From Escherichia phage vB_EcoP_CU10EC, in sequence record PQ435408.1: DNA of 64,000 nucleotides; one strand, written 5' to 3'. Below are positions 40,924-41,790 of the stretch, in pieces; position 1 is the stretch's first letter; every line of letters starts with the position of its first letter. A model generated the notes under the pieces. The model worked only from the letters and a program-made list of their open reading frames with translations. It was not told the origin of the DNA and ran no database searches. Position numbers and translations under genes: made by a program.

Positions 40924-41080
40924 CGGTAGGATCCAGTGTTACAGATACATGCAATGTATTTGTCATCTGAGTTAACATTAGAGCAGCATTGAAATCATCC
41001 TGAATACAGGCATATACAATGTCACCCTTCTCACCCTCACACATTACGGGTGTGTCTTTGATGCGGTATTTAGCAGGCAT
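40862..41080 (-). CDS. Hypothetical protein
   Basis: 72-aa ORF with GGGAGGG RBS; its 5' end is included in the first repeat unit. Confidence 0.35.
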   Translation of the reverse strand: MPAKYRIKDTPVMCEGEKGDIVYACIQDDFNAALMLTQMTNTLHVSVTLDPTGDYPCFPIPAHNLEQIHDQS

Positions 41081-41790
41081 ATGCCCTCCCGAAAGAGTTA
41101 ATTAAAACCAAAAAAAGACCTCCCGGAGGAGGTCTTATGTTTACTTACTATTTTCTTCAATGAAGCGTCTCATACGTTCCTTTGCTTCATCATGTTCACG
41201 AATTGCTTCGTAGTCGCGAGCAATATAATAAAGACACCACAAACCAATCTCACTTACGAAGACATTACGGGTGTGTCTTTGATGCGGTATTTAGCAGGCA
41301 TATGCCCTCCCGAAAGAGTTAATTAAAACCAAAAAAAGAACTCCCGGAGGAGGTCTTATGTTTACTTACTATTTTCTTCAATGAAGCGTCTCATACGTTC
41401 CTTTGTTTCATCATGTTCACGAATTGCTTCGTAGTCGCGAGCAATATAATAAAGACACCACAAACCAATCTCACTTACGAAGACCAAAAAAAGACCTCCC
41501 GGAGGAGGTCTTATGTTTACTTACTATTTTCTTCAATGAAGCGTCTCATACGTTCCTTTGGTTCATCATGTTCACGAATTGCTTCGTAGTCGCGAGCAAT
41601 ATAATAAAGACACCACAAACCAATCTCACTTACGAAGATAAACATAAGACCTCCTCCGGGAGGTCTTATGTTTACTTACTATTTTCTTCAATGAAGCGTC
41701 TCATACGTTCCTTTGCTTCATCATGTTCACGAATTGCTTCGTAGTCGCGAGCAATATAATAAAGACACCACAAACCAATCTCACTTACGA
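41041..41790. repeat. Four-copy tandem array (units 221, 155, 155 bp) of a gene 3' end plus terminator
   Basis: Direct identity; variable base C/T/G/C at 41185/41406/41561/41716; fourth terminator copy is a perfect 34-bp palindrome with inverted loop. Confidence 0.9.
41108..41136 (-). terminator. Intrinsic terminator (copied within the array)
   Basis: AGACCTCC-CGGA-GGAGGTCT; on - strand followed by TTTTTTT. Confidence 0.55.

Follow-up and report, generated by a model that had tools for sequence, protein, structure and literature searches.

Results

Genes and repeat units at the locus

The sequence analysed here, hereafter the window, is a 64,000-nt stretch of Escherichia phage vB_EcoP_CU10EC (record PQ435408.1). 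It belongs to a Gamaleyavirus (N4-like, Schitoviridae) coliphage, whose best complete relatives are ~92–93% identical. A 79-aa gene on the minus strand lies between rIIA/rIIB and ThyX and is assigned to phrog_12633 (PHROGs); its only complete copy occupies 41672..41911. The encoded protein contains hydrophobic segments at residues 9–27 and 36–54 and a charged C-terminal tail. On the transcribed strand, it is followed by a gene for 72 amino acids (40862..41080, minus strand, phrog_7900). The intrinsic terminator of the 79-aa gene is located at 41108..41136 on the minus strand and comprises a 9-bp stem (AAGACCUCC/GGAGGUCUU), a 4-nt UCCG loop, and a following U7 tract, with a dG of -16.7 kcal/mol and a z of -3.2. 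Its sequence is identical in four aligned relatives. With a GC-rich stem-loop and a U run, this element is predicted to be a real and conserved intrinsic (Rho-independent) terminator.

The segment 41042–41793 of the window consists of four head-to-tail units of 221, 221, 155, and 155 nt, namely unit 1 (41042..41262), unit 2 (41263..41483), unit 3 (41484..41638), and unit 4 (41639..41793). Tandem Repeats Finder reported a period-221 array at 41041–41484 (2.0 copies, 99%) and a period-155 array at 41328–41793 (3.0 copies, 96%), and a repeat search recovered four copies at the spacing of 221, 155, and 155 given in the initial annotation. As that annotation had also described, the 3' end of the 79-aa gene and its terminator are present four times, each unit carrying the last 40.7 codons together with the terminator. 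Units 1 and 2 additionally include the first 39 nt of the next gene, with start codons at 41080 and 41301, the latter being a spurious second start of the 72-aa gene (41263–41301) that unit 2 fuses to antisense sequence. In three of the four copies, only a 3' fragment of the gene is present, with no start.

We compared the units after aligning them by their right ends. Unit 1 has C at both 41119 and 41185, the alleles common to the relatives. Unit 2 differs from it at 41340 (C>A), which changes GACC to GAAC in the plus-strand 5' arm of the terminator stem, and at 41406 (C>T), while the sole difference in unit 3 is C>G at 41561. In unit 4, 8 of the 20 leading bases differ from unit 1; the sequence is genuine plus strand from 41659 on, and its last 135 nt are identical to unit 1 (41128–41262). 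The variable base is the first position of a codon on the coding (minus) strand, which reads GCA, ACA, or CCA and specifies Ala, Thr, or Pro at residue 66 of the open reading frame 41672..41911, within the charged tail. Both the three-way codon difference and the GACC/GAAC difference had been noticed at the outset and were reproduced here; unit 4 adds no allele to that list, having C at 41716 and hence Ala, as in unit 1. The stem mismatch corresponding to 41119 C/A would raise the folding energy of the terminator from -16.7 to -10.0 kcal/mol, making it ~6.7 kcal/mol weaker.

Unit boundaries follow a k = 77 geometry

The unit lengths can be written as 155 = 77+1+77 and 221 = 77+1+65+1+77. In all four of the alternative units in the window, a distance of 77 nt separates the unit start from the first mismatch and, likewise, the last mismatch from the unit end. 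Duplication boundaries would be expected to be independent of later substitutions, and this expectation failed: every boundary lies exactly 77 nt from a substitution. If true duplications had later taken random substitutions, the chance of such placement would be ~1e-11. An exhaustive search for exact repeats of at least 40 nt across the whole 64-kb window found only 77-nt blocks, or shorter ones between two nearby variants, and these were confined to four places: 20.5 kb, 39.3 kb, 41.0–41.8 kb, and the flanks of a run of N.

The first of the other places (20522..20908) comprises a 155-nt unit with allele C (20599), a 155-nt unit with allele A (20754), and, after them, an exact second copy of the 77-nt contig overlap (20755–20831 = 20832–20908). 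In a minus-strand open frame of 158 codons, homologous to IME11_21, the variant replaces Gly with Cys at codon 155. The second (39271..39580) is a contig junction inside rIIA, where two 155-nt units differ at the central base, G (39348) or A (39503). This variant is a synonymous Ile, and the duplication as given would break the rIIA reading frame. The third (57391..57682) comprises 138 N (57468–57605) with an identical 77-mer on each side; the 77-bp overlap that the initial annotation had pointed out at this gap is exact (57391–57467 = 57606–57682).

We simulated a k = 77 de Bruijn graph from the three haplotypes deduced for positions 41119/41185, H1 (C/C), H2 (A/T), and H3 (C/G). The resulting graph had edges of 143, 155, 155, and 221 nt. 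Units 2 and 3 are exact edges of this graph, and the last 155 nt of unit 1 are another edge.

Such ends have been described for metagenome assemblers: contigs from metaSPAdes and MEGAHIT overlap at their ends by the maximum k at breakpoints caused by within-population variation (COBRA paper, PMC10914622). As at those breakpoints, the contigs in the window end or start at the variant-flanking k-mer, neighbouring pieces share exact k-length (77-nt) ends, and alternative alleles appear as separate short sequences of 2k+1. Unlike them, the pieces in the window were joined untrimmed with the alternative edges kept in line, giving false tandem repeats and a false N gap.

The locus is single-copy in related genomes and independent contigs

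In 24-32N, IME11, St11Ph5, and UE-S5a, the annotated locus consists of one small gene, a 60-nt terminator spacer, one gene of 72–79 aa, and ThyX. The window collapsed by joining unit 1 to position 41794 onward aligns gap-free to all four. It matches the Gamaleyavirus locus (IME11_40, terminator, IME11_41, and ThyX in IME11; Gp31-Gp30-Gp29 in 24-32N) in gene order and spacing, as well as in terminator sequence and in the 79-aa length of the protein; it differs from it in the DNA, which is ~86% to 93% identical there among the best-covering relatives. The terminator of all four relatives has the unit-1 form, with GACC in the stem and CGGA in the loop as read on the plus strand. The variable base is likewise C in IME11 and 24-32N, and St11Ph5 and UE-S5a have Val at the codon aligned to residue 66, as read from the alignment. 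None of the Gamaleyavirus relatives examined shows the Thr66, the Pro66, or the mismatched stem contributed by the alternative units of the window.

An identical 79-aa protein is encoded on two independent ENA metagenome contigs. Each of them has one copy of the locus with the alleles of unit 1 and is colinear with the collapsed window. Among the matches listed, those running end to end along the 2.39-kb query cover only ~1.84–2.10 kb of the record. A 29-mer across the junction of units 1 and 2 had no match in the viral, metagenome, and genome contig collections. With a degenerate 36-mer across the variable base, the sole match in the viral contig collection was IME11, with the C allele. The tandem array was found in none of the related genomes and independent assemblies inspected, all of which have a single copy. 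Judged from these comparisons, the true locus is taken to be single-copy, with a gp31-like gene, the terminator, the 79-aa gene, and ThyX.

In a whole-genome comparison, the IME11 coordinate steps back by 155 and then 77 (232) at 20.6 kb, by 155 at 39.4 kb, and by 221, 155, and 155 (531) across the array. Both 77-mers at the N gap map to one IME11 stretch. Gamaleyavirus AN24P2 is likewise unbroken across the gap and spans 216 nt less than the window there. Because IME11 and AN24P2 are continuous at this place, the N gap is considered spurious on sequence comparison.

Several further observations were made in these comparisons. The window has no BLASTN match to IME11 at 7910–8586, 21826–22974, 44120–44362, and 55277–55889, and the rest of the genome is colinear; the unmatched stretches may be gene replacements or insertions relative to IME11. 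An unannotated gap of IME11 at 27590–29676 faces ~21.8–23.0 kb of the window. The 77-mer flanking the N run ends in a short AACGTGT repeat, and the surrounding ~57100–58150 has two match places per record in several relatives (104 places in 68 records). In Bp4 and Uz-1, this region maps to record positions 1–796, adjoining the gene of IME11 Gp1 ('genome left end'), and therefore the contig break and N gap may coincide with a terminal-repeat region or the physical genome end.

Unit 4 begins with opposite-strand sequence

The 29 nt that open unit 4 (41639..41667) are exactly the minus strand of 41115–41143. Positions 41639–41658 are foreign to the plus strand, and 41659–41667 are the stem arm shared by both strands, the site of the strand switch. 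Unit 4 accordingly reads along the minus strand through the TCCG loop into the stem arm GGAGGTCTT and then along the plus strand. The opposite-strand match accounts for all eight differences from unit 1 with no free parameter. The resulting palindrome (41639–41674) is 36 nt long (16+4+16) with loop TCCG, and its 16-nt arms, compared with 9 nt in the natural stem, are limited in extent only by the unit edge. It folds at -23.6 kcal/mol. The U tract is lost, and because of this loss unit 4 is not a functional terminator variant.

The initial annotation had described the fourth terminator as a perfect 34-bp palindrome with an inverted loop. The palindrome is indeed present, at 36 rather than 34 nt and with its left arm cut by the unit boundary; the inverted loop does not hold, given that the leading 29 nt are minus-strand sequence. 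A genuine terminator variant, in which the 4-nt loop had been flipped by recombination between the stem arms, would explain why TCCG replaces CGGA over an unchanged 9-bp stem, and yet it would keep the upstream flank CCAAAAAAA, where 41639, 41640, 41643, and 41645 also differ. It would not predict that all 29 leading bases match the minus strand, that the arms, 9 nt long in the natural stem, reach the unit edge at 16 nt, or that the U tract needed for termination disappears. We regard such a variant as highly improbable and rejected it as a candidate, the differences reaching past the loop and exactly matching the opposite strand. Because the leading 29 nt exactly match the minus strand, unit 4 is instead interpreted from its sequence as a strand-switch (foldback) chimera within the terminator stem.

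Artefactual library molecules in which nearby stretches of opposite strands become joined at inverted repeats have been documented (PMC10908179; Gregory et al., 10.1101/2020.01.30.927491). Like these foldback chimeras, unit 4 switches strand inside a short inverted repeat and forms a long perfect palindrome around a reverse-complemented loop; unlike them, it is known here from the 20–29-nt end of an assembly contig alone. By analogy, the foldback probably arose in library preparation.

The exact start of unit 4 is a separate matter. A branching vertex at this start would place the contig start exactly 77 nt before the variable base. In the simulated graph, the first 77-mer of unit 4 was a branching vertex only if foldbacks occurred on two or more alleles, and a foldback on H1 alone put this 77-mer inside a 145-nt edge. 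The exact start appears to need an extra assumption, either foldbacks on more than one allele or a tip that ended there by chance.

Discussion

Origin of the apparent array

The array at 41042–41793 is almost certainly an assembly artefact, in which overlapping k = 77 contigs and edges with alternative alleles of a single-copy locus were joined end to end. The initial annotation had proposed concatenated alleles of k = 77 bubbles as the simplest reading, and this proposal is now supported by the 77-nt flanks, the recurrence at three further places, the reproduction of the units in the graph, and the single-copy state of the relatives and the two contigs. The window as a whole would then be a pseudo-molecule, made of k = 77 de Bruijn contigs and edges of one Gamaleyavirus phage laid in genome order and joined without trimming the overlaps or discarding the edges with alternative alleles.

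At the terminator and the 3' end of the 79-aa gene, the read set would have held the three haplotypes H1, H2, and H3, giving one 221-nt edge, with two variants 66 nt apart, and two 155-nt edges. The upstream contig would have run through H1 and ended at the 77-mer where the alleles reconverge (41186–41262); unit 1 would correspond to its end and represent the genuine single-copy locus. The H2 and H3 edges would have been emitted as tiny contigs and would be the spurious units 2 (second haplotype, A at 41340 and T at 41406, Thr66) and 3 (third allele, G at 41561, Pro66). The downstream contig, which would start as unit 4 with the reference allele (Ala66), could have extended back across the H1 allele, taking in a short branch made up of foldback chimeras, whose sequence changes from minus to plus strand inside the 9-nt stem of the terminator. 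Sorting these four pieces by position and concatenating them would yield the apparent four-copy tandem array, and the run of N would stem from the only position that the ordering tool took for a gap.

All the pieces share one orientation and follow the genome order. At all three sites of duplicated units they are sorted by leftmost position: first comes a long contig that stops at the 77-mer of reconvergence, next one or more alternative edges, and last the downstream contig. This order seems to fit reference-guided ordering followed by plain concatenation. Our guess is a SPAdes-type assembler at k = 77 with subsequent reference-guided ordering; for reads of 150 nt, SPAdes by default goes no higher than k = 77. 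One point against the artefact is that simple bubbles are usually popped by standard assemblers.

The opposite possibility offered at the outset was a physically real array: the 3' end and terminator of the membrane-protein gene would be a hot-spot where recombination readily produces duplications, and the copies would since have diverged. It takes the raw sequence as given, which is all that the data contribute in its favour, and phage genomes do undergo tandem duplication. Since the closest complete relatives are only ~92–93% identical, a duplication restricted to this lineage could in principle be absent from them. Against a real array stand the unit lengths of 2k+1 and 2k+67, the placement of the variants at exactly 77 nt from unit ends, and the return of this k at three unrelated places. 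All the relatives examined have one copy only, as do both independent contigs; the copies are 3' fragments lacking a promoter, one of them joining the start of the neighbouring gene to antisense sequence; and the junction 29-mer is absent from the three public collections. We give a real array next to no credence, and the hot-spot was rejected on the geometry, the single copy in the relatives, and the non-functional copies. Molecules spanning the unit junctions would not be expected to exist. Hypervariation between template and variable repeats, for example by a diversity-generating retroelement, was considered briefly and also discarded: only one or two bases, at positions dictated by the k-mers, distinguish the copies, and the coding-strand changes are G>A and G>C, which are not adenine-specific.

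Alleles behind the alternative edges

Because the alternative edges exist, the variant k-mers were in the read set. The candidate within-stock variants are C/A at 20599 (Gly>Cys near the C-terminus of the 158-codon open frame), G/A at 39348 (synonymous, rIIA), C/A at 41119 (terminator stem), and C/T/G at 41185 (Ala66 to Thr or Pro). In each case, the allele shared with IME11 is the one in the first copy, and the alternative shows a single base in a derived state; the same 221-nt edge carries both A and T of unit 2, which links them. The alleles could represent true population variants, and the pattern may fit low-level mutants in the phage stock.

The assembly artefact could also be combined with alleles of another kind, either recurrent sequencing or library errors or a second near-identical phage introduced by cross-contamination, retained by very deep coverage. 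Unit 4 suggests that library chimeras entered the graph at the same spot, the variants cluster within ~70 nt of a strong hairpin, and neither derived allele was found in the relatives or independent contigs examined. On the other hand, the two changes of unit 2 are 66 nt apart and need 77-mers with both, which independent errors would not give, and two more isolated single-nucleotide bubbles lie far from any hairpin (20599 and 39348). Moreover, a first copy with the IME11 allele and a single-base derived alternative is what would be expected of new mutations in the stock. We consider errors or contamination somewhat unlikely as the source of the alleles. It is quite doubtful, from the sequence at hand, whether the stock truly carries the complete set of Ala66, Thr66, and Pro66 in the charged tail of the conserved 79-aa membrane protein, with Thr linked to the terminator-weakening base.

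Consequences for the record and for the phage

The array is not a genomic feature but an artefact, and like the three other k = 77 artefacts it should be collapsed. The spurious sequence in the window amounts to ~1,133 nt, of which 232 nt lie at 20.6 kb, 155 nt at 39.4 kb, 531 nt at 41.3–41.8 kb, and 215 nt at the N gap, and collapsing all four artefacts results in a continuous sequence of 62,867 nt, made up of positions 1–20676, 20909–39425, 39581–41262, 41794–57467, and 57683–64000. The false features created in this way include tandem repeats, fragments of open reading frames, a palindrome, and a gap, and scans of the record for repeats, duplications, hairpins, or gene fragments will pick up the k = 77 artefacts. 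The chief value of the analysis is in quality control, with the short list of candidate within-stock variants as a minor by-product.

The only remaining biological lead is the possible triallelic codon in the small membrane protein. If the three alleles were true, a single codon would have been changed twice, independently and non-synonymously, and this would suggest that selection is acting during propagation; selection on the 79-aa protein, if true, might concern, for example, lysis timing or exclusion.
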